A stretch of DNA of 64,000 bases, taken from Octopus vulgaris. Lineage: Eukaryota. Made by a program: the position numbers and the translations under genes. Positions 1 to 56,971 of this stretch are shown here, piece by piece (position 1 is the first letter of the stretch; each line of letters begins with the position of its first letter). The stretch is from NCBI GenBank assembly GCA_951406725.2, contig OX597838.1, positions 40,672,001 through 40,736,000 on the forward strand. Direction: 5' to 3'. Under the pieces are notes generated by a model. That model made no database searches, was not told the DNA's origin, and worked only from the letters and a program-made list of their open reading frames with translations.

Positions 1-338
1 TATATAAAACATACTAAAACTATATAGATATATAAATATAGTAAAAAATATATGGACTTATCACAACTTTAAAAATATATAAATACATAAATATATAAAC
101 ACGTTAAAAATATATCGTATATATATATATGTATGTATGTATGTATATATACTCCGACTTCTAAAATAAAAACGATACCATAGAATTAGAAAGTTAGGAG
201 TTCAGAAAAAAGCTAATATATAAACGGTTTGAGTATATATAAAAGTCCAACGGCAGTTTCTAGGGGTCCAGTTGTCTAGGATAAAGGATATTTAAATCCA
301 TTATTAGACACCTCCTCCTTTTTTTTTTTTTTGTTATT

Positions 339-830
339 TTGGATTTTACATTTAACTTAAGTACTAATTTATACTATGCATTTCCCAAACCCAACCAAAC
401 CTTGCAATATATAAATGTCCTTTCGATAGGAATCTCTAATTTATCAGCTAATGAGGAACTATTTAACGTTCACACCGCTTATTATAATCAAGCTCTACAA
501 TTAAGGGGTTTCCGTGAAACAATATTCTAAGCCTACGATACTAAACTGAAAACTAAAATAGCAAATCTTTTCCCCGACTCTAATCCTGTCTCTATAGGCA
601 CGACCTCCACTTCAAATCAAACAAACCCATTAAAAAACCACCTTTAAATTGTACTCGCCTACGCCTTGGGCCACCCAGAACTTCTAAATCTTCTGCTCCT
701 GACCAATCCAATATAGCCACATATTCTAAGTCTAGAAAACGGGAAATCCTATGGTTTGCAGCGCCCTTCTCAATCCATGTTAAATCTTTAAGGTATTTTT
801 TTTAAATTCTGAAATAAAATTTTCCGCAAC
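339..830 (+). pseudogene. Degenerate Naiad-type Penelope-like RT fragment (thumb and downstream region)
   Basis: DFTFNLSTNLYYAFPKPNQTLQYINVLS...ISNLSANEELFNVHTAYYNQALQLRGF aligns by eye to FLDVTLNLNSNSYCPYHKPSTNLKYVSVFS...LSGLSASADIFMQKAEFYNAALSKAGY of ORF 20398..22275. RKREILWFAAPF near 735-770 matches RNKHIWFVIPF. Stops and deletions are present. Confidence 0.75.
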
Positions 831-934
831 TTCTTTTACTTGTTTCAGTCATTTGATTGCGGCCAGGCTGGAGCACCGACTTTAGTCGAACAAACCGACC
901 CTAGAGGTTACACATACAAACACACACATATACA

Positions 935-1306
935 ATTGAAATTGGAGTCAACTAGGAGTACGGTCGGACAGTTACTTTTTAATCGCTACAATTGTTTCCA
1001 CACAACCTAATTCTCCAAAAATGCAGGTATTTGATTATACAACTATTTGTTTTCATAATGAGATCTAGTTGTCTCTTCAGGTAATATTCCCATCCGTCCA
1101 TCTTGGTTTGAATTTTGTAGTACTGCTAAACAAAACGGACAAGCCAAGACGGACGGAGGGGATGGCCTTGAAGTTGAAAATTTTTAACTAACGGAGGCAA
1201 CATTTGAATATCACCGCTTTTGGAGAACTACGTTGTGTAGAAACAATTGTAGTGATTAGAAAATAACTGTCCCAGCGTACTCCTTGTTGATTCCAATTTC
1301 TTCAAT
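935..1306. mobile_element. Fold-back (palindromic) PLE pLTR relic
   Basis: 935-1035 is an imperfect reverse complement of about 1206-1306. An inner inverted pair lies at about 1093-1108 and 1142-1157. Both arms carry GAAACAATTGTA hammerhead 3' halves. Confidence 0.65.
982..1085 (-). ncRNA. Type I hammerhead ribozyme, partly degenerate
   Basis: Minus strand: ATTAC-CTGAAGA-gACAAC...GTTGTgtg-GAAA-CAATTG-TA-GCGAT. Stem I has one mismatch, but the mirror copy at 1252-1256 (GTGAT) pairs fully. Confidence 0.6.
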
Positions 1307-1471
1307 TTTATATTCACACACGACGAGTGCCCAAACGTAAACTTGGGAGTATAAAATAATGCTACCCGATAGTATTGGGTAATTCTGAGGGTGGACTAGT
1401 TTTATACTGTACTCTGCTACGTTCCTAACGGGATATACCATAACTATGAGAGAGAGAGGGAGAGGGAGATA

Positions 1472-1875
1472 CCTGTATAGGGTACAGTTGTACTTGAGAG
1501 CACAAAGGTTATGCCTGTATGCTGAAAGAAGACGCCGAATACGTCCTGCCACGTCAAATATTCACTCCACAGTTATGCAGGTTGTAAGCGGGAATATTTA
1601 TATGTACTCACAAATATATGTATGTATAGATATTTTCACTTACTTCACCCAGTGTGTTTTGCTGATGAAAGAAAATTTAGTAAACTAATTCAGAACTCGA
1701 TCAATCCAAAACTAACTGAATTGTTTTATGAATGTTTAGCCAGCCTGCTTTGCCGCTTACAACCTGTGTAATTGTGGAGTGAATATTTGAGGTGGTAACA
1801 CGTATTCAGCGTGTTCTTTCAGCATTTGGGCAGAATATGCTTTTGTGCCCTTAACTATAATTGTACCCCGTACAG
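1472..1875. mobile_element. Fold-back repeat, probable PLE pLTR relic
   Basis: About 1472-1591 is an imperfect inverted repeat of about 1753-1875. The spacer has a decayed hammerhead-like CTGATGA (1662-1668)...GAACTCGATC (1693-1702). Confidence 0.55.
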
Positions 1876-1984
1876 TTATATGTATTTTACCTAAAAGGAT
1901 TTTCTGTGCTTGACACAGATAAAATTCGTTAATTTTAATGATTTTATCCTCTAATTATGTTGTGTGTGTGTGTGTGTGTGTGTA

Positions 1985-2027
<43 letters not shown>

Positions 2028-2479
2028 ATGTTTAGATTGAGGGGCATCTTCTACATATCTGGTAAGGTATAAAAGAACAGATTGACAAAGTGATTTGAGA
2101 AGCATAATAGAATGAAGAGAAATATGGTGACCTCGTTCAGTAGGGATGGATTAAAAGGCAGAATTTGAACAATATTATCAGGTACCACGGCCAGAGGATG
2201 CTCCTGCAATTAAAGATAATAGCACCGTAACTAACTGGGCCGCTTACAAAAGCTTCCTTATATTATGCTTTTCTTGCCATCTTACCGACAGAGAGCTATG
2301 GATAAGGATTGTGTTCACTGTGTGATGCTGAATTTCTTTTTATGTTTAAGATAAAATAGTGAGGAGATTAAAAAAGACCTATGGAAGTTTAACGAAAGTC
2401 CTGGAATATTTATGTGGGCACCGTTTCAGAACTTCCTTCCGTTTTCTAATAGTATTAACCTTATTGCATAACATCTCTG

Positions 2480-3022
2480 GTACTTCGACTGGGCATACAC
2501 ACACCTTCTTCCATACACGGGAGATTGTGTAAGAAGTATGGTCTTGAAAGGACATTGAAATGGTACGAGCATTAAACCAGAAGACGTCACTGAGAACAAT
2601 GAGGATAAGATTTTATGGGACTCTGTGTGACTCAGTGATTGATGCTCGGAAACTAGAAATTGTTGTAGGGGATAAGAGGAAGCGGGAAATGAAGATCATA
2701 AACATTGGCATTCATGGGGATGTACGAGTGGGTGACAAAGTAGAAGCTAATATAGTTGTAGGGGCACTTGGGAGCATTAACAACCAGGTATGAGAAATTT
2801 GGAGAAATTGGGAATGACACGCGGGTAGAATATACTCAGAGATCTGTTTTGTTGCGGGAAGCGAGGGTCTTAAGATTGGGGGTTGGGTGTTAAGTATCGC
2901 GGAAAGTGATTCTGTGAGACATTTGACAACAGGTTGCTATCCGCTTTTACAGAGTTAACCGAGCATGGGAGATCGAGAACTCTGGGAAGTCGAGTGATGG
3001 TAATGACAACAACAATAATAAT
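2480..3022 (+). mobile_element. Degenerate R4/Dong-clade LINE 3' fragment (restriction-like endonuclease region)
   Basis: Frameshifted translation WYEH-PEDVTENNEDKILWD...CDSVIDARKLEIVVGDKRKREMKIINIGI...IVVGALG is typical of the R4/Dong RLE domain. It ends at a short (AAT)n near 3013-3022. Confidence 0.7.
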
Positions 3023-3401
3023 AAAGAAGAAAAGAAAACAAATTCATAAAAAAAACTCGTTATTCATAATACCGTCAAATCTAGTAAAATATAACAATAA
3101 GATATGAAAGACAAGAGAATGAAATATAAATTGAAATATATTGGAAATATATATGCAACACCTGCGGTGAGAGAAATAATGTATTATGTTAATTTATTCA
3201 TGGACAGAGAATGTAGTAAAGCAATATGTATTCATAAACTACGAAAAACTAAAACGACTACCCCGAAAACAGAGTTTTACAACATTGTCCACCAAAACAT
3301 TCCAGTGTTGAGGCAAGAGTCAAGAATGGAACAAGCACACGAAATAGTCAAAGACTATTAAAGACTAAATCACATTTCACAATATATAATACATGTATAT
3401 G

Positions 3402-3641
3402 AATTAGAGAAGAACCACCATGTAGCAATTCAACAATGATATACTTAAATCATACCATATAAAAAAAAGTGAAAAATACGATAAAACATTTACCTAAAAC
3501 TAAATACAGTACGAAATAATATATAAATAGCATATAATTAGTACTTTATTTAGTTCTTGGTAAATGTTTTATCGTATCTTTAATTTTTTCTATATGGTAT
3601 GAGTTAAGTTGAATTGCTACATGGTGGTTCTTCTCTAATTT
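3402..3641. repeat. Fold-back inverted repeat abutting (TA)n
   Basis: 3402-3512 versus 3541-3641, for example aattagagaagaaccaccatgtagcaattcaac / gttgaattgctacatggtggttcttctctaatt. Confidence 0.75.
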
Positions 3642-3679
3642 ATATATATATATATATATATATATATGGTGAACTGTAT

Positions 3680-4170
3680 ATGGCTGTGTGGTGAACAAGT
3701 TCGCCATGCAACGATTTGGTTTTCGGTTCACTCCAACAGCACAGTACCTTGGGCAGGTTCCTTCTACTATCTCCCTTGAATGACCAATGCTTTGAGAGTG
3801 AATTTGCTAGACGGAAACTGTGTTGAAGCCCGTTGTATGTATGTGTGTATGCATGTATATGTACATACATGCATACATACGACATGGCCACAACCTTAGG
3901 ATTAAAACATAAGTAAGTATATATATATACACATACATACATGAATACATACGTACACACGTATGTATTTCTGTGTGTGTCAGTCTTTATGTTTGCTTGA
4001 CAACAAGAGTTGGTTTGTTTATGTCCCGGTAACCTGGTTGTGCGGGGAAGGAGAAAGATAGAATAAAAACTAGGCTTATAAGCGCTGGGTTTGATTTGTT
4101 CGACTGAACCCCTTCAAGGCTATGCTCCAGCATGGCCACGATCTAAAGAGGGTACCAGGTAAAGGACAAA
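3680..4170 (+). mobile_element. tRNA-derived SINE, family A (diverged)
   Basis: tggctgtgtgg...ccttgggcagg...tagacggaaactg...[microsatellite]...ttgacaac...gctccagcatggcc, same layout as 25337-25748. Confidence 0.75.
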
Positions 4171-4281
4171 AGATATATTTAACCATATGCATATGTAATT
4201 AGATGTGTATGTAGATTCTAATATATATTGCTATGCACACAAACCCATACAGACAACCATACACGCCTATCTCTCTCTCTC

Positions 4282-4316
<35 letters not shown>

Positions 4317-4382
4317 CTTTTGTGTGATAGCTAAATACATACATACATACATATATACATATATACATATATATATATATAC

Positions 4383-4454
<72 letters not shown>

Positions 4455-5013
4455 ATATATACATATTACCGAACACACACATACTCACTCAATGTATGTG
4501 CATTGCTTGTTCGCCGGTCGGCTGCGTCTTGATTCAGTGGAGATGACTCACTCAATGCGCGGAAAAACACCAGAAATTCATAGTCATAGAGAGGTGAGAC
4601 AACCCCCTTCAAGTTCCCTTCAGGAGCTATGGACATCAATGTTTCGCCATGTTTGTAGCTTATCAACATGACGTACTCCAACTGAACCGGATGCTGATTT
4701 AACCCTAGCCTGTTCATCATTATATGTAAAATGATGTAAAAACTCGAAGGTCGCTTCAAGACTAGCTGGTGGACATACCCTGATCGAAACTGCACAGAAA
4801 ATTATGCCCGGTCGCATGTGTATCTACCCGAACGCTGCGCAGTGGGAACACACGTAGGTCAAAATAATCTTTAAAACATGCAAAATGTAATTGAAAAATA
4901 AAAGGAAATAAATTTTGAGGGTGAACAAGTCTCCATATTCTATATAGTTATAATTATTACTAAAAGATATGTATAGGCACAAGCGTGGCTGTATGGTAAG
5001 AAGCTTGCTTCCC

Positions 5014-7000
5014 CTGCGCATGTGCGAATAATTGTAGTGTTCGGCACCAAAGCGGTGAGACATGCTTTTGAAGCCGTCTCGAATTGAAAAATTTTGAAGC
5101 TCCATTGTAAGGTAAGATTCTGTTTTTTGGGTACAGTAGGAAATTTTGTTGAGAATTGTTTTTGTAGAAGCAGGAAGTCCAACTGGATTCAGAATTCTGG
5201 TTCTGCTGACATGGGGCAAATAATTTTTTCTCGCTGAATTGTGAGAATTTTTGTTTGGGGGCGTATTCGTCTTCGGTTTATGTTGAGTGAATATTTTTCT
5301 CACTTAATTATGAGAATTATTGCTTGTATTGTGCCTTTTGAAGAACTTTAAAATAATTGTGAGAACTGCTGTTTGGGGGAGTGTCTTTGCCTCCGAAGAT
5401 TGAACAATTTGTATATCAATTTTTGTGGAAGTTGTGTTCCAGTTGTGGCGTTCCGGGTTCAACCTAGGCCGGGAGTACCGAATGGCCGGAAGAATTTTTT
5501 GCTGTGTTCCTGAACCATTGACTTTCTTCTAAACTTTATTTGACTTTCTCCTTTTTGTTTATTGTGACTTTCTTTTGATTTCTTTTTTCTTCTCGTTTTA
5601 GTTTGAACATAGTTTCAAAAAAAAAAAGAAAAAAAAGGGAAACATGGCAATGAAAAAAGACAAAGTTTTGGAGTGGGAGATCATACCGCCTAAAAAGTGG
5701 TTGAAAGACCGTGAAGATAGGACGGTGGTGTTGAAAACCTACTCCAAGTCACTCGACACCATCGCCCTATTCGAAAAGATGGCAACTGAAAAGGAGTTGT
5801 GCTATTTGATACCCCTGAAATGGCTTACAAATTTGCTAGTCAACCCTTGGAGGGTGAGGAAATTTTGTTTCTTCCCACGTATTGAGGGAGGAGGTTGACG
5901 AAAGCTTGGGTCTGCAGGTTGCCACCCGGGATAAAACCCGAGTGGATAGGGGAGACTATCCGCCGGGGTCTGGGTGGCAGCGGGACCAAGCTTCTTAATA
6001 TGAAAGTTCTTCCTGCGGCTGATTGGGTTGGCTCAAAAGCTGTTTTGACCCTTTGGACCCAATTAGCCAATCTGGTTTTTCCAGATTTTTTTTAAATGGC
6101 CGGGTGCAGGTACCCGGTGATATTTGAGGGTCGCCCCCACCCCACCCCAGGTGTCATCGGTGCCTGGAGTCCGGCCATATAAAGAAAAACTGTTCCCGGG
6201 AACAAAATAGAAGAGGGAATGAAAGCGGCCGAGGAAGCGGAGGACTCCTCAAACAGGGGGCGAAAGAGGAAGAAGGTGAGCAACAATGGGTGTTCACTGA
6301 AGGATCCTAGGGATGAGGAGGGGAAGGCGAATCTCCCGGTTACGGAGGAGATGCACCCTCCTTTTAGTTGAAAAGAAAAAAAAGAGGAAGAGGAAGAGAA
6401 ACGGGACATTGCCGGCAGTTGGTGACCTAGTACCGGAATGTCCTGGAACTACGTCGGTTGGGGTTGTGCCGCCAACGGAAGAATTGGATATCCTGCTCCC
6501 GGAGGAAGACGAAGTATTGATCTTCTTCTATAGAGGGGGAGAGATTGAAAAAGTGATGGAAAAGCACCATAAGGGATCAACTTTAGCCTTTACACAGAAC
6601 CCCGAATGGTCTCCGCAGATAGCTGTGGAGGCCATAACGTTTGACGTGACGTTTGGGCTGAAGGGGCTCAATGAGGAATATCGCTTGTACCCGGGCAACG
6701 CTGACACGGAACTCGATTCGATTTTGAAAGAGGCGTGGAGGATGGCAGAGGATGCGGGCACAAGTTATGTTGAGGGTGAGTTATAAATTGTGGCACTGTG
6801 TGACACAAACATTTGATAATAGGCACTTCGCCTTCTTTCTGAACTCCCGGCTGTCAACGTGGTCTGCTCTGCAGAGGCGGCTAGATATTCGGCTGGGGAT
6901 CCGGAAAGAGGAGGAATGGAAAAGTGATAATGTATTTTTTATGTTTGACTTTTTGATTTTTATGTAAGTGTAAGGTCTCCATGGCGAATTTGATAAAATA
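5014..7000 (+). mobile_element. ORF1-only non-autonomous LINE (HAL1-like, L1/Tx1-type ORF1)
   Basis: Flanked by a perfect 16-bp duplication AAGAAGCTTGCTTCCC (4998-5013 and 7001-7016). The roughly 630-bp 5' UTR has imperfect tandem repeats. The ORF1 is frameshifted, the 3' end is AATAAA-like, and I see no RT or APE motifs. Confidence 0.7.
5644..6786 (+). pseudogene. Frameshifted gag-like ORF1 with CCHC zinc knuckle
   Basis: Joining ORFs 5644.., 5895.. and 6313.. gives TKAWVCRLPPGIKPEWI (RRM-like), then YPVIFEGRP, then CHRCLESGHIKKNC (CX2CX4HX4C, 6152-6193), then a basic linker. This order is typical of L1/Tx1 ORF1. Confidence 0.75.
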
Positions 7001-7016
7001 AAGAAGCTTGCTTCCC

Positions 7017-7505
7017 GGAGGGAGGAGCCCATGCCCTGGACAGGGGACGAGGAGTGGCCTTCGCAGGTGACTACGAAGATCATATCGGATGTCGCTATAG
7101 TCAGGGTAATGAACACCTTCTCAAAGGACATGTTTAGATACGCCTTCAGGGGCCTCGACCTAGAGCTGGTGCATTGCCAAAGGGAAGCGTAAGCCAGATC
7201 TGGGAGGTGGGGCTTTGTGTATTGTATTTATATATATTATATGTAATTATTGAACTATGTTGTTTGTAATGGACTGTTAAGTCCAAAAATTGAAAAGTTG
7301 TAAAAGTTGTAAGAGGTTCAATACCTCGTTTTGTGTTTGGTTTTAAAGAACAATGTTTTAGAGAAGCAAAAGTCGGCGGACTCTTTTTGTCTTCTCCCAT
7401 CCTTATCATTTTTCTTTCATTATCATTAATTTCATTAATGTCCATGTCCAGCCCGCAAAGCTACTTTACTCTATGTACTGCCTTTATGGCAAATGTAATG
7501 AAATA
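7017..7505 (+). mobile_element. Second, 5'-truncated ORF1-only-type insertion at the same target
   Basis: Lies between target copies 7001-7016 and 7506-7521 and ends in AATGAAATAAA. Its translation PWTGDEEWPSQVTTKIIS weakly resembles AFTQNPEWSPQIAVEAIT of the upstream element. Confidence 0.6.
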
Positions 7506-7784
7506 AAGAAGCTTTCTTCCCAACTACATGGTTTCAGGTTCAGTCCCACTGCGTGGTACGTTGGGCAAGTGTCTTCTACTATAGCCGCGGGCCGACCGAA
7601 GCCTTGTGAGTGGATTTGGTAGACGGAAACTGAAAGAAGCCCGTCATGTATATATATGTATATATATGTATTTATGTGAGTGTGTCTGTGTTCGTGCCCC
7701 ACCATCGCTTGACAACCGATGCTGGTGTGTTTACAACCCCGGACTTTAGCGGCTCGGCAAAATTTGAATCTAAATTTTGCTGAA

Positions 7785-13359: not shown

Positions 13360-13420
<61 letters not shown>

Positions 13421-13429
<9 letters not shown>

Positions 13430-13714
13430 TACATGCATACATATTTAAATATTAAAATTTAAATAGACACATATACATACATATACATATTTAAATATCA
13501 AAATTTAAATACACACGCCCGCACATACACATACACACGCATATACACAATGGGTGAGATCCAAGTAAGATCCACAGATGCCCAATATAGAACAAACGTA
13601 GTAGTGCTCAAAGGATTTGAACTTACTCTTCTAAGTTTTTATTGAGGACTGAATCCGCGGGCTAAAGAGTGACTATAGGAGATATCAAGGCGAGCTGATA
13701 TGAAGCTAGCGATG
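13421..13714. repeat. Left arm of a 294-bp near-perfect inverted duplication (partner 16339-16632)
   Basis: Direct comparison; about 1 mismatch seen by eye. Confidence 0.9.
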
Positions 13715-13789
13715 AGGTTCTTCCATTCTGCTACGATATGGTGTTTAATTAAACTAATTAGAATACTTACTTTTTCATGCTTCTAGGGG

Positions 13790-13989
13790 TTACTCTTTAC
13801 TCTTTTACTTGTTTCAGTCATTTGACTGCGGCCATGCCGGAGCACCGCCTTTAGTCGAGCAAATCGACCCCGGGACTTATTCTTTGTAAGCCCAGTACTT
13901 ATTCTATCGGTCTCTTTTTGCCGAACCGCTAAGTGACGGGGACGTAAACACACCAGCATCGGTTGTCAAGCAATGCTAGGGGGACAAAC

Positions 13990-14022
<33 letters not shown>

Positions 14023-14187
14023 CGACAAGCTTCTTTCAGTTTCCGTCTACTAAATCCACTCACAAGGCATTTGTTGGCCCGGGGCTATAGCAGAAGACAC
14101 TTGCCCAAGATGCCACGCAGTGGGACTGAACCCGGAACCATGTAGTTGGTTAGCAAGCTACTTACCACACAGCCACTCCTGCGCCTA
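13790..14187 (-). mobile_element. SINE family A, near full length
   Basis: Closely matches the reverse complement of 25337-25748. Confidence 0.9.
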
Positions 14188-15061
14188 TGATGAATCAAGT
14201 ATTTTCTAGGTTGTGAGGTATAACATCATTTGGAAACCTCTGCGCTGATGTACGCAGACTTCTTATTAGGCCGTAGGGTGTAAGGTGAGAAAGATGTGGT
14301 TACTATTTCTAGCAAATCGAGGATCCGCTCTTTGCTTGTTGTTGTAATATTGTTTAAGTGGATTGTGTTTTCATAAAGTTTTATGGAATAAAGTCGTAGC
14401 TTATTCTAAAGTGAGGCTGGATTAAAGTTGATCAGATGATTTCATGATATTGTGTGATGTTTGGTTTCCCAAGTGTATTTCGCTGCTGCAAGGAACAGAA
14501 TTAGCAGCAACTTCAAAATCTAGATTCAGCTCAGAAGGGATTTATTTCTTACTTGCACAAACCTCGACATACGGTTATAAAAATACGTTCAAGCTAACGC
14601 AGCAGTTTGTACGTAGTCGCTTAACATGCTAGAAATAGCAGCAAAGTTATCTGCAAATCACCATACAGCTCTTGAAAATAAGATACGTGGGATAAAATAT
14701 TCTGGATCCCTTCCAAACACGTAGAAAACGCGATGGTGAACTCTGATCCTAGCTCCTCTACTCCATCGGAGACAGACCTTCGCCGAAACAATAACAACAA
14801 AATGGATTTTCGATCTAGCATTCTATGATAGGGTTCCCGTCCCTGAAGAAGTGCAAATTACGCTGAAATCACGTGATGCAACAATCCCATCCGCCGGTGC
14901 TGACGAAATCTCGTCTGCCGATATTATCAGAGTGTTGTTCATTTTAACACAACGTTGCTACGAGATGATTTCTTCGAACGATTTACTACAGCTTACACGG
15001 CTTTGAAAGTGAAGTTGTACAAATTAATATTCGCCACAAAAAATTTGCTTCTGTCGCTAAT

Positions 15062-15109
<48 letters not shown>

Positions 15110-15410
15110 CTGAGTGGATATCTTTGTTCATACTATAATTTCATGCTTAAACCGATACTATATTGAAATACAATTCCACTTGAAATAGAAACAAAAGACC
15201 TCAAAATATATCTAAAAACAAACAGAAATTTCATGTAATTGTTTTCTCATAAAACATTCAAATATAACTTATCTGAATCCACTATATTTAACAGATATAA
15301 CATATGCTGACCACTATATTTTTTCAAGTGTCACTCACACTTTGTCTTCAATGTGAAGTGCGCCTGGCGGGCAGGCGGGAGTAAGATTGTTTATAATTAT
15401 ATGTTTGTGC

Positions 15411-15480
<70 letters not shown>

Positions 15481-15488
<8 letters not shown>

Positions 15489-15762
15489 TTAGAGACAAAA
15501 CCACTATTTTGCAAAACATTGTAACTGACTTATTGGAAGTCCACCTGAAGATTGTCGATCAAGACAAGAAACAATTGTAGTGGCGGTTTTTTTGACTTTT
15601 TATTAAAATTTTATGTATTGATTAAGTCTTTCCTTGTTTGTTTTGCAAAATAGTGGTTTTGTCTCTAATAATATTATATAATATTTTACTATAAAATTGG
15701 ATTTAATCCTAAATCTGATTTTTTCCCTGTAAATTTGGATTTATTCCCTAATATTTATTATC
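15481..15762 (+). mobile_element. Non-autonomous PLE pLTR with inverted 5' copy and intact hammerhead
   Basis: 38-bp perfect inverted repeat (15481-15518 / 15639-15676) brackets the ribozyme. Flanked by (TA)n. Confidence 0.8.
15541..15583 (+). ncRNA. Type I hammerhead ribozyme, canonical minimal form
   Basis: CCAC-CTGAAGA-TTGTC-gatcaa-GACAA-GAAA-CAATTG-TA-GTGG: perfect stems I and II, palindromic stem III, GUA cleavage triplet. Confidence 0.92.
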
Positions 15763-16279
15763 ATATATATATATATATATACATACATACGCCCATACAC
15801 ATAAACATCCACATATACACATATAAAATACAATTGCTATTGATACTAATACAGCTAATTCTAATACAACTGCCACAACAACTACTGCATATAAACATTA
15901 CCATAAATGCATCCTCTACTGATAGTATATCCGCGAATTCCTGCAAACTCCATCTGCCAATTACGAACATTACAACTATTACGTAATCCCGACTTCCAGA
16001 AACAGCTGTCGGACTTAAAATACTATTCTTCTCTTAGTTTTCTGTATTTTTTGTACTCAATGTAAATTTATTTATTTTTCAAATACATCCATTTCTATAT
16101 GCTTATACACGAGAAAAATTCTTTTTTCTTTTATATTTGTGTGGATATATATATATATATGTATGTATGTATATGTATATGTAGGTATGTATGTATATAT
16201 ACGTATATGTAATGTATGTATATATACGTATATGTAATGTATGTATATGTATATGTATGTATATATATGTATATGTATG

Positions 16280-16318
<39 letters not shown>

Positions 16319-16338
16319 AGACCAAACGTGTTCATATG

Positions 16339-16632
16339 CATCGCTAGCTTCATATCAGCTCGCCTTGATATCTCCTATAGTCACTCTTTAGCCCGCGGAT
16401 TCAGTCCTCAATAAAAACTTAGAAGAGTAAGTTCAAATCCTTTGAGCACTACTACGTTTGTTCTATATTGGGCATCTGTGGATCTTACTTGGATCTCACC
16501 CATTGTGTATATGCGTGTGTATGTGTATATGCGGGCGTGTGTATTTAAATTTTGATATTTAAATATGTATATGTATGTATATGTGTCTATTTAAATTTTA
16601 ATATTTAAATATGTATGCATGTATATATGTAT
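16339..16632. repeat. Right arm of the inverted duplication of 13421-13714, embedded between (TA)n tracts
   Basis: Direct comparison with the left arm. Confidence 0.9.
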
Positions 16633-16651
16633 GTATATATATATATATACA

Positions 16652-16711
<60 letters not shown>

Positions 16712-16932: not shown

Positions 16933-18859
16933 TTATTTATTTATTTATATTTATATATATACATAAGACAATTATAATGGATACAGAGATTAGTATATCT
17001 GCATAGGTTTTTTTTTATTACTACAATCGATTAGACGGTAAATTCGTCCGACGCACGTTTCTGCCGCATAAGCAACTTGCGATTGCCTTTGCATCGAGTT
17101 ACGTTCGATTGGCTTTTAGTCTATGCAACTTTATTGAGGATCCTTCCACTGGCATAGTCCTAGGTGATTTAGGTGTATGTAGGCCTGGGTAGTGTTAATT
17201 TATTTGATCACTGTATTTTTTGAGTTAAAAGAATGTGATAGGAAGATTTGGAAATCTGATATGGCTATAAAAACTACCAGGAATTTTGAGGTTCGGAATA
17301 GGAATACTCGACCATGAATAAGGTCAAACTATATTTTAAGAAAATATTTTGTATTTTTTTTTTTAAATAACTAGATGTAAGTATCTAGATGCAAATGCCA
17401 TTGATAGTACACCCGAAACGTGCGTTGGACAAATTTAGAACAAATATCCTGGATGTAGAAACAAAATACGATAAGCAAAATACGATTTGCTTATCTCTGT
17501 ATTCATTGTCTTGGATATACACTTAGCGCGCCAGAATCAAGACTATAGTTGAGTGTTCGTATGGTACCCGACCGGATACTTTATCGCTATCTATTCATTA
17601 TACACACACATTACATATATATATATAACAATAGGATAATAAGAAATTATTATTACCAGTGGCCTAGTACTGGTAGTTAGTTTTACATGTGGATCTGACT
17701 GTATGTATATTTGAAATCGAAAGGCTGTCCCACTGATGAAGACTGGCCTTCAGCAAATATTTTTTTGCTGGAAATAGTTAGAAACCATGGTCTGGAAAAT
17801 AATTGAGATGGTAAACGTTTAATTTTCATTCCTTTCGAGAATTTATCCTTAATTGAGTTTTCTACTGCTCTTTCTAGCACAAGGCTTTCCTATTTGGAAG
17901 CCTCTTGTATTTCTATAATTATATATATAGTGATTTCCACATCTTTTCAGAGGAAAGCCATCACTTCAGTTATTAAGTGCCGTCATAATACCTCATGTGA
18001 CAAACGAGTCCAGCTTTAGACCTGTAACACCCTGCAGCGGGTGTTGCAAACTTTGCCAGGCAGAAAAGTGTCTGGGTGTATTTATTAAAGCTTGTTTTCA
18101 TACCAAGTTCTATGTATTAACAATTTTAAGTAAAAGTGAAGGATTAGCCAATACTTTTTAGTGAAGTACTTATTTATGAAGTTTTACGAGAAAAATGTTG
18201 ACTGTGACTTCGCGGTTTCGGCTTGTTCGAAACTTATGAGTAATCTTACTTTACAAACTCTGATATTTGAATGAGCGTTTGTATGATCATTTTATAAACA
18301 TACATATATACACACGCACACAAGTATAAACGTGTATATATACATAAATATATTATCATACATCATACACACACACCACACATCACACCACATCACACAC
18401 ATCACACCACATCACACACATCACACAGACATATATATATATATATATTCTTCCACTGGTTTCAGCCAGAGACTAGGGCCATGCGGGAGCTGGTTTCAGC
18501 CAGAGACTAGGGCCATGCGGGAGCACCGTCTTTTAAGGTGTTTCGGGCGGAGAGGTGGGGTCTGTATTGATTTGGGTGAAATAGCGACTTGGACGGAACC
18601 GCTCTTCTTTGTGCCTCCTGCCGCGATGTGGATTCATCTGACATTTCAGTTAAAATTTTGTCTACACACCCTTTGAACACCTCCGCATGGATATTTAGTG
18701 TCACGTTAAGAAGCAGAGCACAGCACCAGAATTTTTTTTACTCGAATCAAATATAGCACACTACTCCGAATAGCTTTAAAATATCGGCATCAGTAGAATT
18801 AAGAGGACTAATATGGGCTAGCATCGAGTCTTTTTGGTTGTAATAATGAAATGAAACCA

Positions 18860-19075
18860 AGGCGGTGAGCTGGCAGAAAGGTTAGCACGCCGGGCGAGAT
18901 GCTTAGCGGTATTTCATCTGTCTTCATGTTCTGAGTTCAAATTCCGCCGAGGTCGACTTTGCCTTTCATCCTTTCGGAGGTCAATAAATTAAGTACCAGT
19001 TGTGTACTGGTATCGATCTAATCGACTGGTCCCCTCCCTAAAATTTTTGGCCTTGTGCCTAGAGTAGAAACGAAT
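18860..19075 (+). mobile_element. SINE family B, full length
   Basis: ggcggtgagctggcagaa...gagttcaaattcc (B-box)...gcctttcatcctttcgg...ggccttgtgcctagagtagaaa. Confidence 0.9.
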
Positions 19076-19317
19076 AAGGAAATCAAAGCCAACGGTGATA
19101 GGCACGTTTCAGATTTGCCTAATATATACTTTAAGTGAGGAATTTAATGTTATGGATGCATTTCCTGTTATACATTAGGCAAACCGGAAACTTACATATT
19201 AAATTATTTTAAAATACCACTATTTGCTTTAATTTCAAAATCAAAACAACATGTATATATATATATATATATATATATAATCTACATGTTTCTCTCACTG
19301 TTTATTTTCCCTTATTC

Positions 19318-19353
19318 CTTTCTGTTGAAGAGTGTAGGCTCGAAAAGTAGAAG
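19318..19353 (+). ncRNA. Degenerate A6U-type minimal hammerhead in a short (TA)n-flanked element
   Basis: CTTT-CTGTTGA-A-GAGT-gtag-GCTC-GAAA-AG-TA-GAAG; homologous to 42363-42398. Confidence 0.5.
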
Positions 19354-19393
19354 ACTTTCATTTTCCCGAGCGTCAAACTAACATATGTATGTG

Positions 19394-19478
<85 letters not shown>

Positions 19479-19680
19479 ATATATTATGTGAAATAGAAAT
19501 ATGAATAATCTTGTAGCAGATTAATCAAAAGTTGGTAGCAAAAATCACAGCAGAAGACAGCACGGTTGGAGGTACAACCATATGGTGTTGCAACCGTGCG
19601 TTGGTGCGGATAATTGAAATTAAAATATTATTGGTGAATTGAAGAAATGGAGCTGAACGAAGATTGCACAGAAATCGTTT

Positions 19681-19766
19681 TATTTCATTCTACACGTGTT
19701 TCGAAATTTACCAAAATCCGATTGAATAATGAGACCATATTGTGTCTTTCTCTTCAGGAAGAAATA
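19681..19766 (-). ncRNA. Type I hammerhead ribozyme in the 3' pLTR
   Basis: TATTTCTTC-CTGAAGA-GAAA...TTTC-GAAA-CACGTG-TA-GAATGAAATA. It has a 7-nt deletion in stem/loop II relative to the 22632 copy. Confidence 0.82.
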
Positions 19767-20397
19767 GGAAATCCGTTGGAAAAAACAAAAACAGAACAGA
19801 GGCGAAGCAAAACAAATCGAACTAGGCTCCTAAGAGCCCATGGCAAAACTGTTTATCAGTGTATGTTGAGAACCGGTGGTTGAAGATTTTAACGGGTCAG
19901 GCAGCGGTCATTCCTGTGGGTGAGGGTGTGTAGATGTTCTTTGTGACCGAGAATAAAGTTCTGACTATTTAAGGAATATTGGATGTTTTATAAGGGGCGA
20001 GAAAAAATCTACTTAGAGACATGTGTGTGTTTACTGTTCTGTATATGTGTGCTGGCGCGGGATGGCAAAACCTCCGTCAAGGGGTAGAAAACATTTTTTG
20101 TGTACGTGTGTGCGTTTGATCGCTCGGCTGTCAGTGGTTAAGCCGCTCTACACAATGGCTACTGCAGTAAGAACCGTTGGGTGGCAGAAAAAATATATTA
20201 TGTTTTATGTGTGCGTGTGTTCGTCTGAACCTGCCTTGTCAAGGAAACCCCCCGTCGTCAAAAAACAAAAAACAAAAAACAAAGCCCCGTTTATCTTACA
20301 GGAGTAATTCCCCTTGCAGTGGTTAATCGTAATTATCTTAAAGGCTATTTCAGAATTTGTTACCAAGGGCTATGGGTGCAGGTATTATTTATAAACG

Positions 20398-22275
20398 CTA
20401 TTTAAAAGCCAGATAAGTGTAACGCCGCCAATGGGGGCATCGAAAAGCCGACTGTAAAAGTCCGTTTACCATCCGGCCTCTAGCGAACAAAATATGGAAG
20501 AGTTCGGAGACACAAAGGTTGCACTTCCTTCTGCCCCTATCAAATGGGAGGGCCACCGACAAAATTGACCATTGCAGCCTGTAGCTTGAGTTCGTATCCT
20601 TCAATCGCCATATTAGCTTGCTGAGTCCCGTGGTCTGGCGTTTGTTCACGTCCCGAAAAGTTGCGTAATGATTGGAGATTCGCAAAGCCAATCTTGACGA
20701 TGAGGCCCCTACATAAGTGTAGACATCTGAGTCCGTGTAAACCTTGCATTGGTAGACGGCGTTTCTGATCTTGGAGTTCGCCGTCGTGAATCTTATTCTG
20801 CTAGGATTAGTTTCTGAAATTAGAACTGCGTTTCTGTCACTATATTTGTTACGAGAACTGCAGCCGCTTACTACTTTATTTTCCACTACGTCACTATTAA
20901 CTAACGGAATAACCCCTGATTCTCCACTATCTATCAGAGTGCTGTCATTGCTAGTGCCCGTGGTGCTGCTATTGGGGGAAATGATGCTGGGGTTGCTATT
21001 GGGGCTCTCTACCCTACTCCCATTGTTACCGTCAACCACAACACCCCTATTTATAACTATACCCCTAGTGTGTACTCCCTGGCTGGAGCTGAGATTATGT
21101 GTCACTGTACTGGCTCTCATATCATTATTACTACTATAATTATTCCTACTGAGCATTAAACCGGGAGCGGAAGAGGCTGTGCCTCCGGAAAAAGGTGATA
21201 GGGTCTTAGTAAGTAGCCTATTATTATGGGAGGCGATTATCTGGGCGAGGTTTTTAGTGTTGGAGAAAGCTATCCTAACTTTATGCGAGTTGACCGTGGA
21301 GTAATATTTGGAATTTCTGGGGAAGTTATTGGCGATGGCTTGTCTAAACATGAGGGGGAGGTTAGTTCTAATCTGCTTACCAAAGGGAATTACAAACCAT
21401 ATATGCTTATTCCTATCTGTGTGATGGGTCGGGACGCCAGCTCTCGCATTCGGGTGGGTGATTCTCGGATGAATAACGGGTTTTGGGTTAGTGTGAGATC
21501 TCCCGGACCGATAAATATCCTTGTTCGCTAAATTAAATGCGGGAGCGACTGCCCCAGCACCCGCCGCGCTTCCGTCCCTACTTAAATTGTTTATGTTATT
21601 ATAGACGGCCCTATCCTGATGACCGAATGATGGCATCGGAAGGGCCGGATCAATATAAATTACCTTCTGCCTATAACCGGCCTTGGATAGTGCGGCGTTA
21701 TAAAATTCCGCTTTCTGCATAAAAATATCGGCACTGGCGGACAAGCCAGACAATCTTAGAGAGATGTTTTTAACCAAGTTGTCTGTTACGGTTTTGGCAT
21801 GATTTGAGAAGACACTGACATACTTCAAATTAGTGGAAGGCTTATGGTAAGGGCAGTATGAGTTGCTATTAAGGTTAAGTGTAACGTCTAGGAAATTAGC
21901 CTTGGTGAGTTCATTATCAAAAACTATATTCATGCCCATTCTATTAAAAAACCTAGCTAACCTGCTCTTAGTTTTCTGCACTATTCTGTTCGTGGTGTTT
22001 TGCAGGTAAAACAGACAATCGTCACGATACAGGCCGCCCGCGATCTCCGGGAATTGGTCGGACAATTCGTAGAGAATATATATTCCGACCAAATCGGCTA
22101 TCTGCGCACTATCCGAACTACCCATAGGCACATCAAATTCATTGGGAGTATCTTTACGGATCCACAACTTATTATCAAACTTAATAAACGATTTCCTGGC
22201 AACTAAAATGATATCTATCTCTTCTCTGGTGAGGCCAGCCTTGTTGTGAGCATGCCAAAGGGCCTTATTTAGCAC
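20398..22275 (-). CDS. PLE reverse transcriptase-GIY-YIG endonuclease (N-terminally truncated; frame extends to about 22355)
   Basis: Upstream FIQFDIASFYPSI, then FDVPMGSSDSAQIADLVG, GLYRDD, FLDVTLNL, SNH, IWF. The EN domain reads AVYQC..YVG..RISNH..WSIL..CNLC..CPH, the Naiad-like motif set. Confidence 0.92.
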   Translation of the reverse strand: MLNKALWHAHNKAGLTREEIDIILVARKSFIKFDNKLWIRKDTPNEFDVPMGSSDSAQIADLVGIYILYELSDQFPEIAGGLYRDDCLFYLQNTTNRIVQKTKSRLARFFNRMGMNIVFDNELTKANFLDVTLNLNSNSYCPYHKPSTNLKYVSVFSNHAKTVTDNLVKNISLRLSGLSASADIFMQKAEFYNAALSKAGYRQKVIYIDPALPMPSFGHQDRAVYNNINNLSRDGSAAGAGAVAPAFNLANKDIYRSGRSHTNPKPVIHPRITHPNARAGVPTHHTDRNKHIWFVIPFGKQIRTNLPLMFRQAIANNFPRNSKYYSTVNSHKVRIAFSNTKNLAQIIASHNNRLLTKTLSPFSGGTASSAPGLMLSRNNYSSNNDMRASTVTHNLSSSQGVHTRGIVINRGVVVDGNNGSRVESPNSNPSIISPNSSTTGTSNDSTLIDSGESGVIPLVNSDVVENKVVSGCSSRNKYSDRNAVLISETNPSRIRFTTANSKIRNAVYQCKVYTDSDVYTYVGASSSRLALRISNHYATFRDVNKRQTTGLSKLIWRLKDTNSSYRLQWSILSVALPFDRGRRKCNLCVSELFHILFARGRMVNGLLQSAFRCPHWRRYTYLAFK

Positions 22276-22631
22276 ACTAGGGTTAATCGAGGGGTAGAAG
22301 CTGGCGATATCAAACTGAATGAACCTAGTACGGTTCTTATTGGGGATGGAAGAGAATCACTTCACTACCTGCCACACATGTCTCTAAGTAGATTTTCTCG
22401 CCCCTTATAAAACATCCAATATTCCTTAAATAGTCAGAACTTTATTCTCGGTCACAAAGAACATCTACACACCCTCACCCACAGGAATGACCGCTGCCTG
22501 ACCCGTTAAAATCTTCAACCACCGGTTCTCAACATACACTGATAAACAGTTTTGCCATGGGCTCTTAGGAGCCTAGTTCGATTTGTTTTGCTCCGCCTCT
22601 GTTCTGTTTTTGTTTTTTCCAACGGATTTCC

Positions 22632-22724
22632 TATTTCTTCCTGAAGAGAAAGACACAATATGGTCTCATTATTCAATCGGATTTTGGTAAATTGTACCTT
22701 TCGAAACACGTGTAGAATGAAATA
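22632..22724 (+). ncRNA. Type I hammerhead ribozyme in the inverted pLTR copy
   Basis: Stem I 22632-22640/22715-22724, CTGAAGA 22641-22647, stem II GAAAG/CTTTC, GAAA 22703-22706, palindrome CACGTG, GUA triplet. Confidence 0.88.
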
Positions 22725-22779
22725 AAACGATTTCTGTGCAATCTTCGTTCAGCTCCATTTCTTCAATTCACCAATAATA

Positions 22780-22845
<66 letters not shown>

Positions 22846-31426: not shown

Positions 31427-32308
31427 CATACACGTATGTGTGTGTCCCACCACTGGTGGTTTTAACAGAAGTTAGGAGCAGACTGAAAGGGCTGAATACA
31501 GACCCCTTCCTCTCAGGCTGAGCCCTCATGAATTTTTTCAAGTTACATTTGAAAGGAGAATTCAAGATGGAGGCAGAAGTGCCGTTTTACTAAAAGGCAA
31601 GCATGGTCTGAGTGAATAGAATAGGTCTACTCGGAGCATGCACTTATAGACTGGACGAGAATGGCTGACAGATGGCCTTAGTGCTCATGATTTTCTGGAG
31701 TTTCCACCTGTGGCCCTTGGAGGTTTCCCCACTTGGGGGAAATTATTCCTCGAATTTTAAAATATTTTTACCTCTCTTTCTCTTAATTTAATCTTTTACT
31801 TCTTTCAGTCATTAGACTGTGGCCATACTGGAGTGCTGACTTGAATAATTTTTAGTCGATCTCAGGACATTTCTTTGAGCCTGGCACGTATTCTATCAGT
31901 CTCCTTTGCCGAATTGCTAATTTACAGCGACATAAACACACCAGCACCGGTTGTCAATCGATGGCGGGACAAAGACACACACGCGTGTGTGCGCGCGCTC
32001 GTGTGTGGTGAAACTTCGGAGTATAGAATTAACTGATATTTTAATTTTTTCAAAGTGTCCTGCTCGTTTACAAAGTGCTCTAAATAAGAATGTTCTTTCT
32101 TGGTTTGGCAATTTGACTGCACATTTTAGCATGTAAGAAGACCACATTGTGGTCTTCTCTCCGTGTATAGATTTTATGCACTCATATATATTGTTCATAT
32201 ATTTTGTAAACATATATGTATATATATATATATATATATGTTCTTTCAATCCACTCAAAGGCTTTCGTCGGCCCGACGCTATAGCAGAAAACACTTGGCT
32301 AACGTTCC

Positions 32309-33791
<1,483 letters not shown>

Positions 33792-38890: not shown

Positions 38891-39122
38891 ATATATATAT
38901 ATATATATATCATGAATATACATATATGTACAAACACACTCACACATATTATGTATGTATATATATATATATATAAAAAGCAATAAAGATTCAAGTCAAT
39001 TTAAATGAATTTACTTGAATATGGTACCTAACTTAGATGCACCAAAAAAAACTATACTGATTTAACAATACAGTAATGTGGGGTGATTATAAGCGAGAAT
39101 GAAGCAACAAGAATGGATAGGT

Positions 39123-39213
39123 TTTTAGTACAATCGTTTCATACAAGGACAGGTTTTATTAAAAGTTGCAAAAATTACAGCATATAAACGTGTCCCGTAC
39201 TCATCAGCTAAAA
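39123..39213 (-). ncRNA. Type I hammerhead ribozyme
   Basis: Reverse complement of 40960-41050. Confidence 0.88.
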
Positions 39214-40959
39214 TACATGTGAGTTCTCTAGACATCCTAGTGGTTGAGGCTATACTCATGAAGTAATGTAGATAATTAAGTAACATAAACAGATTTCAAA
39301 AGTTCATTAAAGTTCTTTAAAGATGATGTACAGTCTTATCACAGAATTTTAAAAAAAGTCTTAATAGCATCACAGAGAAGGTGACCCAATCCATAGTGCA
39401 CATATGAATTTCCAGAGATATGATGAGGGATTACATACTCACAGAAGGCAAATTTATCCATTGTTAATTACAACGAGGTGGGTTTCAATTCCTGCTTATT
39501 AGCATTACAGAGAGGGTGAATTAATCCTTTGTATAGATGCACAATTTCCAATGGTGTAGGTGTAAATTTCCAAGGAATTTCATATTCACAGGCGATAAAT
39601 TTATCAATGGTTGAACACAATGAGGTAGGTATCAATTCTTGCTATATGATTAGGTATTTGCCACATTAATCACATTACTGCTATTTACAAGAGGCTGTAG
39701 CTATTTAACTTTTAAAGGCTGAAGGGCTTACTAGAGCTGTATAGAATAGAAAAGGGAAGGGCATAGAAGAAAAGAGAGAAAATAAAAGAGAGAAAATAAA
39801 AGAGGAGGGAGTAAAAAGGGGGGGGAAAGGGGGACTCAAAGAGAAGAGAAAAGGAAAAAGAGAATAAGAAGAAGAAAAAGAAAAAAGAGAAAAGAGAAAG
39901 AAATAGGGAAGGAAGGGAAAAAAAGAAAAAGAAGAAAAAAGAAAAAAAGAAAAAGAAGAAAGAAGAAAGAAAAAGAAAAAAAGGGTTCTAGTTATACAGA
40001 AGAATTAGTAGACGACAAGTCTGGTTTTAGTTTACAGGCATCTAGGAATTAGAGGAGAATATTATTCTTTGACCAGTTAAAACAGTTAATTTATTGCTGT
40101 TGAAATCAGCTATGAATTTAAAGAGAATCTAAAGAGATAACACAGTTAGGGGTTTCGGGGTCAGATGCTAAAATCACCAGAAAATACATTAGGGAAAACT
40201 AGGTATAATCTTATCAAAAAGTCATCAAAATTTACTTATTTAATTTATTCATTTTATTGTCTTAAGGAGTTGCCGTTATTATTCATACATTGACGGACTA
40301 CAGGTCAAATCTTAGAAGATCATTTAAGAGGTGTTAGGGGATTGTCTATCATAATGAAGATAATCATATTATCACCGAGGGAATAGTCTCATTTATTTAA
40401 TTTTGAAATAGAATTATGGGTCTATAGTAACCCAATTTAATTAATTAGAGTTATGCTAATTAAATTAGATTAAGTTAGGAACTAAAATTAAAAATTACAA
40501 TTAAGATTTAAAATTAAGAATTTAAAAATTTAAAAATTGTGAGTTTGAAATTAAATAAAGCCTCAATTAAGCAGCGAATAAGTGCTATTCATTTCCCTGT
40601 TCTCAAAAAACTGATGCAGATATAGGAAAAAGATAACTGTAGTGTGAGAACTCTTAGTTATCTACTTAATGCTAATAAGCAGGAATTGAAACCCACCTCG
40701 TTGTAATTAACAATGGATAAATTTGCCTTCTGTGAGTATGTAATCCCTCATCATATCTCTGGAAATTCATATGTGCACTATGGATTGGGTCACCTTCTCT
40801 GTGATGCTATTAAGACTTTTTTAAAATTCTGTGATAAGACTGTACATCATCTTTAAAGAACTTTAATGAACTTTTGAAATCTGTTTATGTTACTTAATTA
40901 TCTACATTACTTCATGAGTATAGCCTCAACCACTAGGATGTCTAGAGAACTCACATGTA

Positions 40960-41050
40960 TTTTAGCTGATGAGTACGGGACACGTTTATATGCTGTAATT
41001 TTTGCAACTTTTAATAAAACCTGTCCTTGTATGAAACGATTGTACTAAAA
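40960..41050 (+). ncRNA. Type I hammerhead ribozyme
   Basis: TTTTAG-CTGATGA-GTACGGGACA...TGTCCTTGTAT-GAAA-CGATTG-TA-CTAAAA. Confidence 0.9.
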
Positions 41051-41080
41051 ACCTATCCATTCTTGTTGCTTCATTCTCGC

Positions 41081-41160
<80 letters not shown>

Positions 41161-49170: not shown

Positions 49171-49689
49171 TCGTAAACAAAGTGGTGTGGGTTCGAGTCC
49201 CACGCGTACGGAAAACCCTACTTTTTCTGTCAAGGGCTTATATATTCCTTTATTAGACTATTTTCTTTAGTCATTGCGCGGTGATTGCTTATAAGCTTTA
49301 AGTTTATAAGATACTATTATATATATGCATGTTATTGTATTTTTCTTTCTTACTTCTGTACTCCGATCTTTCCAGTTCCTTTTCTTGCTTTTCAGATTTA
49401 CTTGTTTATATTTCTCTCTCTTTTTCCCCCTTTCATCTTCTCCCTCTACCAATCCATGTATTTGCGAATGTGTGTGTGTGTGTGTGTGTGTGCATACCTG
49501 TGTGTATCATTACAGGTGTGTTCGCGAACCAATCACCGTTTCCCCATCGATATTAGAAACCAACTTCAACACAATCAGTCAAAACCAGTCGATGAAGTTA
49601 ATTACATTAATCCATATATATTTGTAACTACAATTAACCCTGTGTGCAGAAGAGCCACGAAGACTGAGCCACATTACATGAATATATGC

Positions 49690-49748
<59 letters not shown>

Positions 49749-49766
49749 AATGTATTAATATATATA

Positions 49767-49810
<44 letters not shown>

Positions 49811-49887
49811 TTGAGTTGTGGGGTATCGCACGAGTGGGATTATATAAGAAAAAAGGTTTGAAAATGCAATTTAAACGATGTTTATTT

Positions 49888-49928
49888 ACTTAACCGGTTT
49901 CACTCTTTGGTAAAAGATTGTCAAAAGT
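49888..49928 (-). ncRNA. U3-A8 variant type I hammerhead (3' pLTR)
   Basis: ACTT-TTGACAA-tCTTTTaccaAAGAGt-GAAA-CCGG-TT-AAGT. Confidence 0.75.
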
Positions 49929-50553
49929 TACATTTAAGGAAACATTGAATAATATGGGTTCAAAAAAGTTTTTTACATAATTGTCACATTGAATATTATG
50001 CATTCAAAAAAGTTTTTTACATAATTGTCACATTGAATATTATGCATTCAAAAAAGTTTTTACATAATTGTCACATTGGCTATTATGAATTCAAAAATGT
50101 TTTTTTATACATAATTGTCACATTACATGTATAAATATAGTGTTTGGTAACAGAGAGTTCAATAGTGTGATGAGAATATTTGGGAAAATTTGGCAGAAAA
50201 GGATAAAACAAATATATTATTGGGAATTGCTTGCGTTAATTATTGGTTGTCGCAAATTGTCACATTACATGTATATATATACAATCTTTGGTATATATAT
50301 ACAGTCTTTTGACAGCAAAAATTAAAATGGATTTTTTATACATCTCAGAATATTTAAGTACAAGGCGAGAATATGTTTTTACTGACCTGTCGGTATTAGC
50401 AGAAAGGCTGAACTGAGAGAACAGAGGAAGTAGCCAATGTGGTGTATACTTCCCCTTTATGCATGAATGATTTTGGGGTTATCAGGAGGTTAGTATGCGG
50501 GTGTGAATAGATGTGTCCGTGCCCGCTGGTCAGATAGCGTCTGTTTGTCACAC

Positions 50554-50611
<58 letters not shown>

Positions 50612-50777
50612 TAAACAAACACACACCACATACAAACAACACACACACACACACAGAACACACACACCCACACACAACGCACCCACATATATCACATATA
50701 CACACAGCACACAAATATAATATGTATCTATATATAACATACACAGATATATAACACACATACACACACAACACACA

Positions 50778-50818
<41 letters not shown>

Positions 50819-51352: not shown

Positions 51353-51385
<33 letters not shown>

Positions 51386-51605: not shown

Positions 51606-51654
<49 letters not shown>

Positions 51655-51880: not shown

Positions 51881-51918
<38 letters not shown>

Positions 51919-56932: not shown

Positions 56933-56971
<39 letters not shown>

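Follow-up and report, generated by a model that had tools for sequence, protein, structure and literature searches.

Long interspersed elements (LINEs) with a dedicated insertion target have been described for ribosomal, small nuclear and transfer RNA (rRNA, snRNA, tRNA) genes, microsatellites, telomeres, and DNA or long terminal repeat (LTR) transposons (PMC4640811, PMC4494074). The closest described parallel to the locus reported below is the Tx1-Mar/SINEU system of crocodilians, in which Tx1-driven insertion is directed at another transposon, leaves a 16-nt duplication and builds tandems, with a specificity of 313/347 for SINEU-3 (Kojima 2015, PMC4494074). Equally relevant are transposable element (TE) dimers formed by double insertion, as known for R1, jockey and the P element, since tandem dimers with the target duplication in their junction form readily under loose site preference (McGurk and Barbash 2018, PMC5932611). 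The present analysis concerns a 64,000-nt stretch of the Octopus vulgaris genome (assembly GCA_951406725.2, contig OX597838.1, positions 40,672,001 to 40,736,000; hereafter the window), in which an octopod LINE derivative with only the first open reading frame (ORF1) stands in tandem with a second insert at one site of a short interspersed element (SINE). Specificity for the SINE is plausible.

The octopus pair shares with Tx1-Mar/SINEU a non-autonomous rider, a multicopy transposon as target, a 16-nt duplication and sequential tandems sandwiching the duplication, whereas the target there is a Mariner DNA transposon and the rider a non-coding, snRNA-headed SINE, the target here is a SINE head and the rider encodes ORF1, and specificity has been counted only in the crocodilian case (PMC4494074). 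In build, the longer insert resembles HAL1 (half-L1), which has a 5' untranslated region (UTR), ORF1 only and a short 3' end, depends on an autonomous LINE, as the octopus element presumably does, and arises repeatedly (PMC5753468). However, HAL1 stems from mammalian L1 with its Type II ORF1 (PMC5203782) and is not described as sequence-specific in the available text of PMC5753468, whereas the octopus ORF1 carries two RRMs and a CCHC knuckle and both inserts lack poly(A); the mammalian L1 origin and Transposase_22 ORF1 of HAL1 proper were not found. HeT-A-type telomeric Jockey elements likewise combine an ORF1-only build with a special target, and among them ORF2 has been lost repeatedly, head-to-tail arrays are formed and ORF1-only families beget new ones; unlike the octopus pair, they belong to the Jockey clade, occupy chromosome ends and leave no target duplication inside a dispersed repeat (PMC13534243). 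The double-insertion dimers match the octopus pair in their head-to-tail order, in the target duplication kept in the junction and in the 5' truncation of the second member, but the octopus pair joins two different families inside a SINE, and the dimer mechanism alone needs no fixed target (PMC5932611). By analogy, the pair appears to be Tx1-Mar/SINEU-like in its working and HAL1-like in its build without being a HAL1.

The split SINE and all parts of the tandem lie on the forward strand. The SINE starts at 4976, breaks after AAGAAGCTTGCTTCCC (4998-5013) and picks up again with its body at 7522; an exact repeat of this 16-mer occupies 7001-7016, and a third copy, with a single mismatch (at 7515), occupies 7506-7521. 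Between these three copies lie insert 1 (5014-7000, 1,987 bp) and insert 2 (7017-7505, 489 bp), both ending in AAATA. The 5' part of the head (4976-4997), which contains an A-box-like motif (4986-4996), can be aligned with intact copies at 25334, 12612, 14188 and 38895, and the remainder (7522-7762) comprises a B-box-like motif (7537-7547), the body, a TA/TG microsatellite and a 3' segment. Head 4976-5013 and body 7506-7762 together align end to end and in register with six unbroken SINE copies in the window, the body at identities of 111/125 to 110/126 to four copies. Allowing three mismatches, the 16-mer is found seven times in the window against 0.19 expected, a number reached in 0 of 100 shuffles. 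Both box-like motifs were recognised by eye from their consensus, and from them a tRNA origin of the head may be inferred; comparison of the head with Rfam and ARAGORN gave no tRNA match. The flank just 5' of the SINE (4896-4960) is also repetitive, with a summed contig depth of about 17,000-21,000 at 4921 in the two public contig sets (X1 and X2) consulted throughout.

The 16-mer is a target duplication and not the 3' end of an element, because empty SINEs contain it once. All six other aligned SINE copies of the window are empty at this site, and they read AAGTAGCTT in three cases and AACAAGCTTG, AAGATGCTCG and AAGACAGCTC in the others. In the contig sets, 14 of the 15 joints listed (of 268) lead from the SINE head at 5010-5013 to the body at 7526-7564, which is the empty SINE, and among the 19 loose-end rows listed (of 1,576) those before 7537-7538, resting on 226-726 contigs each, have a consensus that passes the 16-mer directly into the SINE body. 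The mismatch of the third copy is a minority state, as 82% (X1) and 89% (X2) of the depth at 7515 agrees with copies 1 and 2. The initial annotation had proposed this target duplication, with the coordinates and lengths of the two inserts; all of these held on re-reading, as did the emptiness of the other copies, whereas their uniform AAGTAGCTT motif applies to only half of them. The first two A's of copy 2 complete an AATAAA with the end of insert 1; since these A's are common to the duplication and the AATAAA end of the inserts, the length of the duplication is 14-16 nt. Such a duplication is what target-primed reverse transcription (TPRT) produces, and two retrotransposition events at the 16-mer site can be regarded as nearly certain. 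Copies 1 and 2 are identical and copy 3 differs, which weakly suggests that insert 2 arrived first and insert 1 then entered the upstream copy.

Insert 1 opens with a 5' UTR of 630 nt (5014-5643) containing short internal repeats (5225-5257, 5294-5326 and 5355-5382), in which no Pfam match was found in 3/3 frames. Its first bases, TGCGCATGTGCG (5014-5025), resemble an NRF1-type promoter motif and form a candidate internal promoter. ORF1 (5644-6786) is broken and encodes two RRM-fold domains (about 5683-6140), a CCHC knuckle (6152-6193), a charged linker and a C-terminal region of unknown fold (6403-6786); it is followed by a 3' region of only 214 nt (6787-7000) that holds no ORF2 and ends in a terminal motif (6969-7000). 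Two in-frame stops (5883-5885 and 6093-6095) and about four frame changes interrupt the reading frame, which also lacks some 60 nt when set against the related protein P0002; the stop at 5883-5885 is private to the window copy, since 99% and 98% of the depth at 5885 in the two contig sets has another letter. Among six ORF pieces of both inserts, Pfam returned only a weak zf-CCHC match (E 0.006, below the curated cut-off), and all 12 frames, read through with X at stops, gave no match and no trace of a reverse transcriptase (RT), an apurinic endonuclease (APE) or any other endonuclease. Insert 1 is thereby a LINE derivative with ORF1 present and APE and RT absent, the build of a HAL1-like non-autonomous element, and the early description of it as a frameshifted RRM-like and CCHC-bearing ORF1 without RT or APE is borne out by these frames and by the RRM folds of the structure model described next.

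The only word-based match of the ORF1 core is P0002 of Octopus sinensis (77% identity over a 118-residue core; 55-58% over two segments when ORF1 is compared with it). A full protein scan with P0002 yielded 47 proteins at E <=0.001, P0002 itself counted, and a structure model of P0002 built from 24 of them (mean predicted local distance difference test, pLDDT, 79) places RRM folds at residues 14-99 and 100-186. Its best fold match is La (Z 8.4, root-mean-square deviation 2.6 over 79 residues), and tandem-RRM proteins top the Foldseek list. The CCHC knuckle sits C-terminal to the second RRM, and Atlas independently places ORF1 among eukaryotic CCHC and ZCCHC3-RBD clusters (0.90-0.92; 167-179/256 features). 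No Transposase_22 match was found in P0002 or the 19 relatives scanned; among the fold matches listed for P0002 there is no L1 ORF1 structure, which excludes nothing. The same 19 relatives show no trace of RT or endonuclease, P0016 being a chimeric gene model with an integrase. The related gene models P0002 and P0016 lie on different contigs, and the 11 named proteins among 20 relatives looked up all come from octopods (Octopus or Argonauta). The ORF1 proteins form a diverse octopod family (P0003-P0055), mostly at 22-36% identity to P0002, and in six of them visual inspection suggests a common C-terminal domain, about 90 residues long, that has no Pfam match.

For the C-terminal region of ORF1 itself, a thioredoxin-like assignment (Atlas 0.91, 100/256 features) and a poor structure model (pLDDT 42) were both rejected, and a degenerate RRM was unsupported, since 38 of 1,000 shuffles scored as well. 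Judged from the model, the layout of two RRMs plus CCHC is Type I-like. A Type I ORF1 is necessary for Tx1 but not diagnostic, other clades having the same layout; the RRM and CCHC combination expected of Tx1 is present here, and the clade is not proven thereby. In non-mammalian animals, this layout has been described as consistent with the Tx1 clade (PMC5203782).

Insert 2 (7017-7505) is a 5'-truncated element. It opens inside a 57-codon frame without a start (7019-7192, no homologue found), as expected of such truncation, and continues with a 313-nt 3' region that closes in a terminal motif (7474-7505). This motif and that of insert 1 are alike, with 23/32 identical positions over the last 32 nt; the last 25 nt of insert 1 match insert 2 at 18/25, a score that no other 25-mer in the window equals (63,877 compared). 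The inserts had at first been credited with different 3' sequences, and while their number and lengths stand, their ends differ only in part. Furthermore, both meet the target at the identical base and without a poly(A) tail. Precise, tail-less junctions are typical of sequence-specific elements rather than of relaxed L1s, and the shared 32-nt end may be read as a signal by which one partner recognises both inserts. A 3' stem-loop common to the two found no support, as the last 60 nt give z of 0.66 and 0.49 and only insert 2 together with the duplication folds well (z -3.5). The 57 codons had no database match among two candidates, and comparison with a profile of the C-termini of six relatives (63 shuffles as good among 442 scored of 500 made) and with RRM profiles (293 and 72 of 1,000 shuffles as good) was likewise negative.

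Depth in the contig sets, which when summed over contigs is not a copy number, provides the evidence that these elements are multicopy. The unique flank shows 0 differences at depths of 46 and 43, relative to which the summed depth is about 400,000 times higher over the SINE (7522-7762), 43-2,087 times higher over insert 1 as a whole and 94-384 times higher over its leader (5014-5643). Contigs of single-copy depth, 6-15% diverged, align along insert 1, and two of these in X2 (about 8% and 12% diverged) pass the ORF1 stop into the short tail, as far as 6916 and 6875; one of them differs at 13 positions, with 2 gaps in addition, over about 185 nt, the other at 26 positions over 209 nt. Since diverged contigs run on from ORF1 into that tail, the junction between the two was itself copied and is common to independent copies. 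Among the 16 contig pieces listed, these two cross the stop well into the tail, one departs at 6800 and one ends at 6788; at 6845-6917, each substitution or indel listed is supported by 1-11 contigs per run, and a weak hint of a short family comes from eight Logan-sourced relatives listed on contigs of 1,703-2,446 nt. Insert 1 is thus interspersed and multicopy, as a non-LTR retrotransposon should be, and the recurrence of the ORF1-to-tail join in two diverged contigs upholds the original preference for an ORF1-only form over a simple internal deletion of the window copy. It is accordingly quite probable that the ORF1-only form is a replicating multicopy family. In the best run 0.42 of the words of the stretch are found, a share compatible with some 3% of private divergence together with rare variants being lost in contigs; it says nothing on the presence of the allele; the raw-read runs X22 and X23, with 35 and 14 matching reads of 12.9 million each, are uninformative.

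The explanation that accounts best for the locus as a whole, and which we hold with slightly more than even confidence, is that non-autonomous elements are moved by an L1/Tx1-type partner favouring this SINE site. Insert 1 would then be complete as an ORF1-only element, insert 2 would be the 3' end of a member of a related family, and their shared terminal signal of about 30 nt would be recognised in trans by the APE-RT protein of the autonomous partner. This protein would nick the SINE head on its bottom strand, immediately before AAGAAG; reverse transcription would be primed at the AATA(AA) end of the element; and a top-strand cut 14-16 nt on would create the duplication. Every insertion would restore the target, allowing a second element to land there, so that the pair may have been made here in two steps or may have come as one read-through transcript of a tandem master in another SINE copy. 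By parting the A-like from the B-like box, insertion would probably inactivate the SINE that receives it and cost the animal nothing. Taken separately, an L1/Tx1-type partner is quite probable, and a strong preference for this SINE position is moderately so. L1-Tx1 elements are represented in O. vulgaris by 80 families, 13 of them recently active with 421 insertions (PMC13282606).

Two stripped-down elements, both without ORF2, at one spot of a SINE suggest a SINE-specialised parasite, although a single locus is no proof of it. Under uniform insertion, an exact coincidence of this kind is expected 0.00001-0.004 times per genome, an estimate that uses rough copy numbers and an assumed 2.7-Gb genome; some site preference is therefore near certain, strict targeting not. 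Several observations weigh against a SINE-directed partner. The evidence comes from one locus, whereas by Kojima's rule a target-specific element has more than 20% of its flanks in one repeat type. No partner has been found, ORF1 searches having confirmed 0/422, 0/601 and 0/146 candidates in collections not built for animal DNA. Homology of the 57 codons of insert 2 to the C-terminal region of ORF1 was not demonstrated (243 of 5,000 shuffles did equally well). None of the 15 joints listed leads from 7000/7016 into the SINE body, although such contigs could align ungapped on the similar end of insert 2. The contig departing at 6800 has 91 unaligned letters, so that some relatives continue differently, possibly into ORF2, and against a short family the JGI relative P0052 lies on a 5,720-nt contig with room for ORF2.

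The strongest competitor, rather unlikely though well short of negligible, is an ORF1-only, HAL1-like family with loose L1-type site preference, whose first copy entered a SINE through SINE abundance and an acceptable nick site and whose second re-used the duplicated site. SINEs make up 11.6% of the O. vulgaris genome, which renders a first hit in a SINE unremarkable (PMC13282606), and with only one usable site in 50 up to 0.2 coincidences would be expected. Moreover, TE dimers in Drosophila stem mainly from double insertion, jockey dimers with differing 5' truncations among them, and Jockey and P-element dimers arise by site re-use without a fixed target (PMC5932611). The emptiness of all six other aligned SINE heads of the window fits loose preference as well. 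In addition, the 16-mer site resembles a relaxed L1-type nick site. Loose preference fares worse with the base-identical, poly(A)-free junctions, with a duplication of equal length both times, and with the recurrence of the adjacency of insert 1 and insert 2 in several copies.

That adjacency appears to exist in several copies elsewhere. A joint from 6948 in the tail of insert 1 to 7125 inside insert 2 is seen in both contig sets at depths of 753 (two contigs, the shorter side spanning 49 letters) and 88 (one contig, 22 letters), against 46 and 43 for the flank; resting on one row at 85% likeness, it is a lead. The initial annotation had regarded the inserts as separate, and while two inserts are present, their independence is now less certain. 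Read-through may carry the pair along as a single unit; the middle 16-mer would then have come from another SINE copy, strengthening the case for targeting. An alternative reading takes 5014-7505 as one composite family, with the promoter and ORF1 of insert 1, a relic junction and the tail of insert 2, its internal 16-mer an old relic, which spreads together with the SINE or within it, through duplication or through gene conversion between SINE copies, and without fresh targeting. Besides the multicopy joint, the depth profile agrees with this, being high over ORF1 (174-2,087 times flank) and the last 200 nt of insert 2 (about 2,000-3,800) and low between them (43-449), although summed contig depth is no copy number. 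We consider it improbable: a retrotransposing composite that landed again on the 16-mer would in itself be a case of targeting, and so part of the partner-driven explanation, and conversion alone leaves two families at one site unexplained.

Least probable of all is that insert 1 arose by internal deletion from an ordinary autonomous LINE and is dead debris with no replicating family behind it. In favour of this, the window copy is disrupted by stops, deletions and frame changes, a contig leaves the alignment at 6800, and P0052 sits on a contig long enough for ORF2. Against it, the same ORF1-to-tail join stands in two diverged contigs, the variant rows of the tail have 1-11 contigs per run behind them, neither an APE nor an RT relic was found in 12/12 frames, and the stop at 5883-5885 is private.

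The literature searched contains no SINE-targeting case and no ORF1-only Tx1-type family; Repbase reports, Dfam and subscription papers lay outside that search, and such elements may be catalogued there. More specifically, the available text of PMC8869645, PMC4640811, PMC4758252, PMC8967140, PMC9004415, PMC3747384 and PMC3531059 names no SINE target. The junction pattern had 0 matches in metagenome, prokaryote-genome and viral collections, which are not built for animal DNA and are uninformative on specificity, and the SINE-body pattern had 0 in the viral collection, a weak negative given that this pattern is absent letter for letter from the window too.

Other elements populate the window. 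A Penelope-like element on the minus strand (49681-57799) is bounded by inverted repeats (49681-51527 and 56005-57799; about 1.86 kb, 92.6%). Its 776-codon RT frame (52104-54434; RVT_1 E 5.5e-8), whose end looks GIY-YIG-like by eye, overlaps a 471-codon frame upstream of it (54374-55789) for which no family match exceeded the curated cut-off. At 19619-22786 there is a second Penelope-like frame by eye (20398-22356, minus strand, 652 codons, no Pfam match), with 416-nt inverted repeats at 97%. Elements at 39088-41085 and 13360-16693 have near-perfect inverted repeats (420 nt at 99.5% and 355 nt at 98.9%), adjoin TA runs and resemble miniature inverted-repeat transposable elements by appearance. 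Two copies of a different SINE head variant (32248-32377 and 33084-33150), 770 nt apart, have common upstream sequence and adjoin long ACT repeats, possibly reflecting a local duplication.

Should SINE-site targeting prove false, what is left is an ordinary dimer, belonging to a half-LINE family undescribed in the literature consulted. If it is true, it would extend the safe-haven strategy to a SINE; provide a second case, outside Drosophila telomeres, of ORF2 loss going with a specialised target; and point to a new site-specific endonuclease, that of the partner, with a defined 16-nt site. It would also reveal a three-level parasite chain of LINE, half-LINE and SINE as target. In its widest form, which we put at somewhat less than an even chance, octopuses would harbour a radiation of ORF1-only retrotransposons, served by an L1/Tx1-type partner and sequence-specific for one head position of their most abundant SINE, whose several hundred thousand dispensable copies would offer a safe landing field, with the SINE promoter split on insertion and tandems copied onward as composites.

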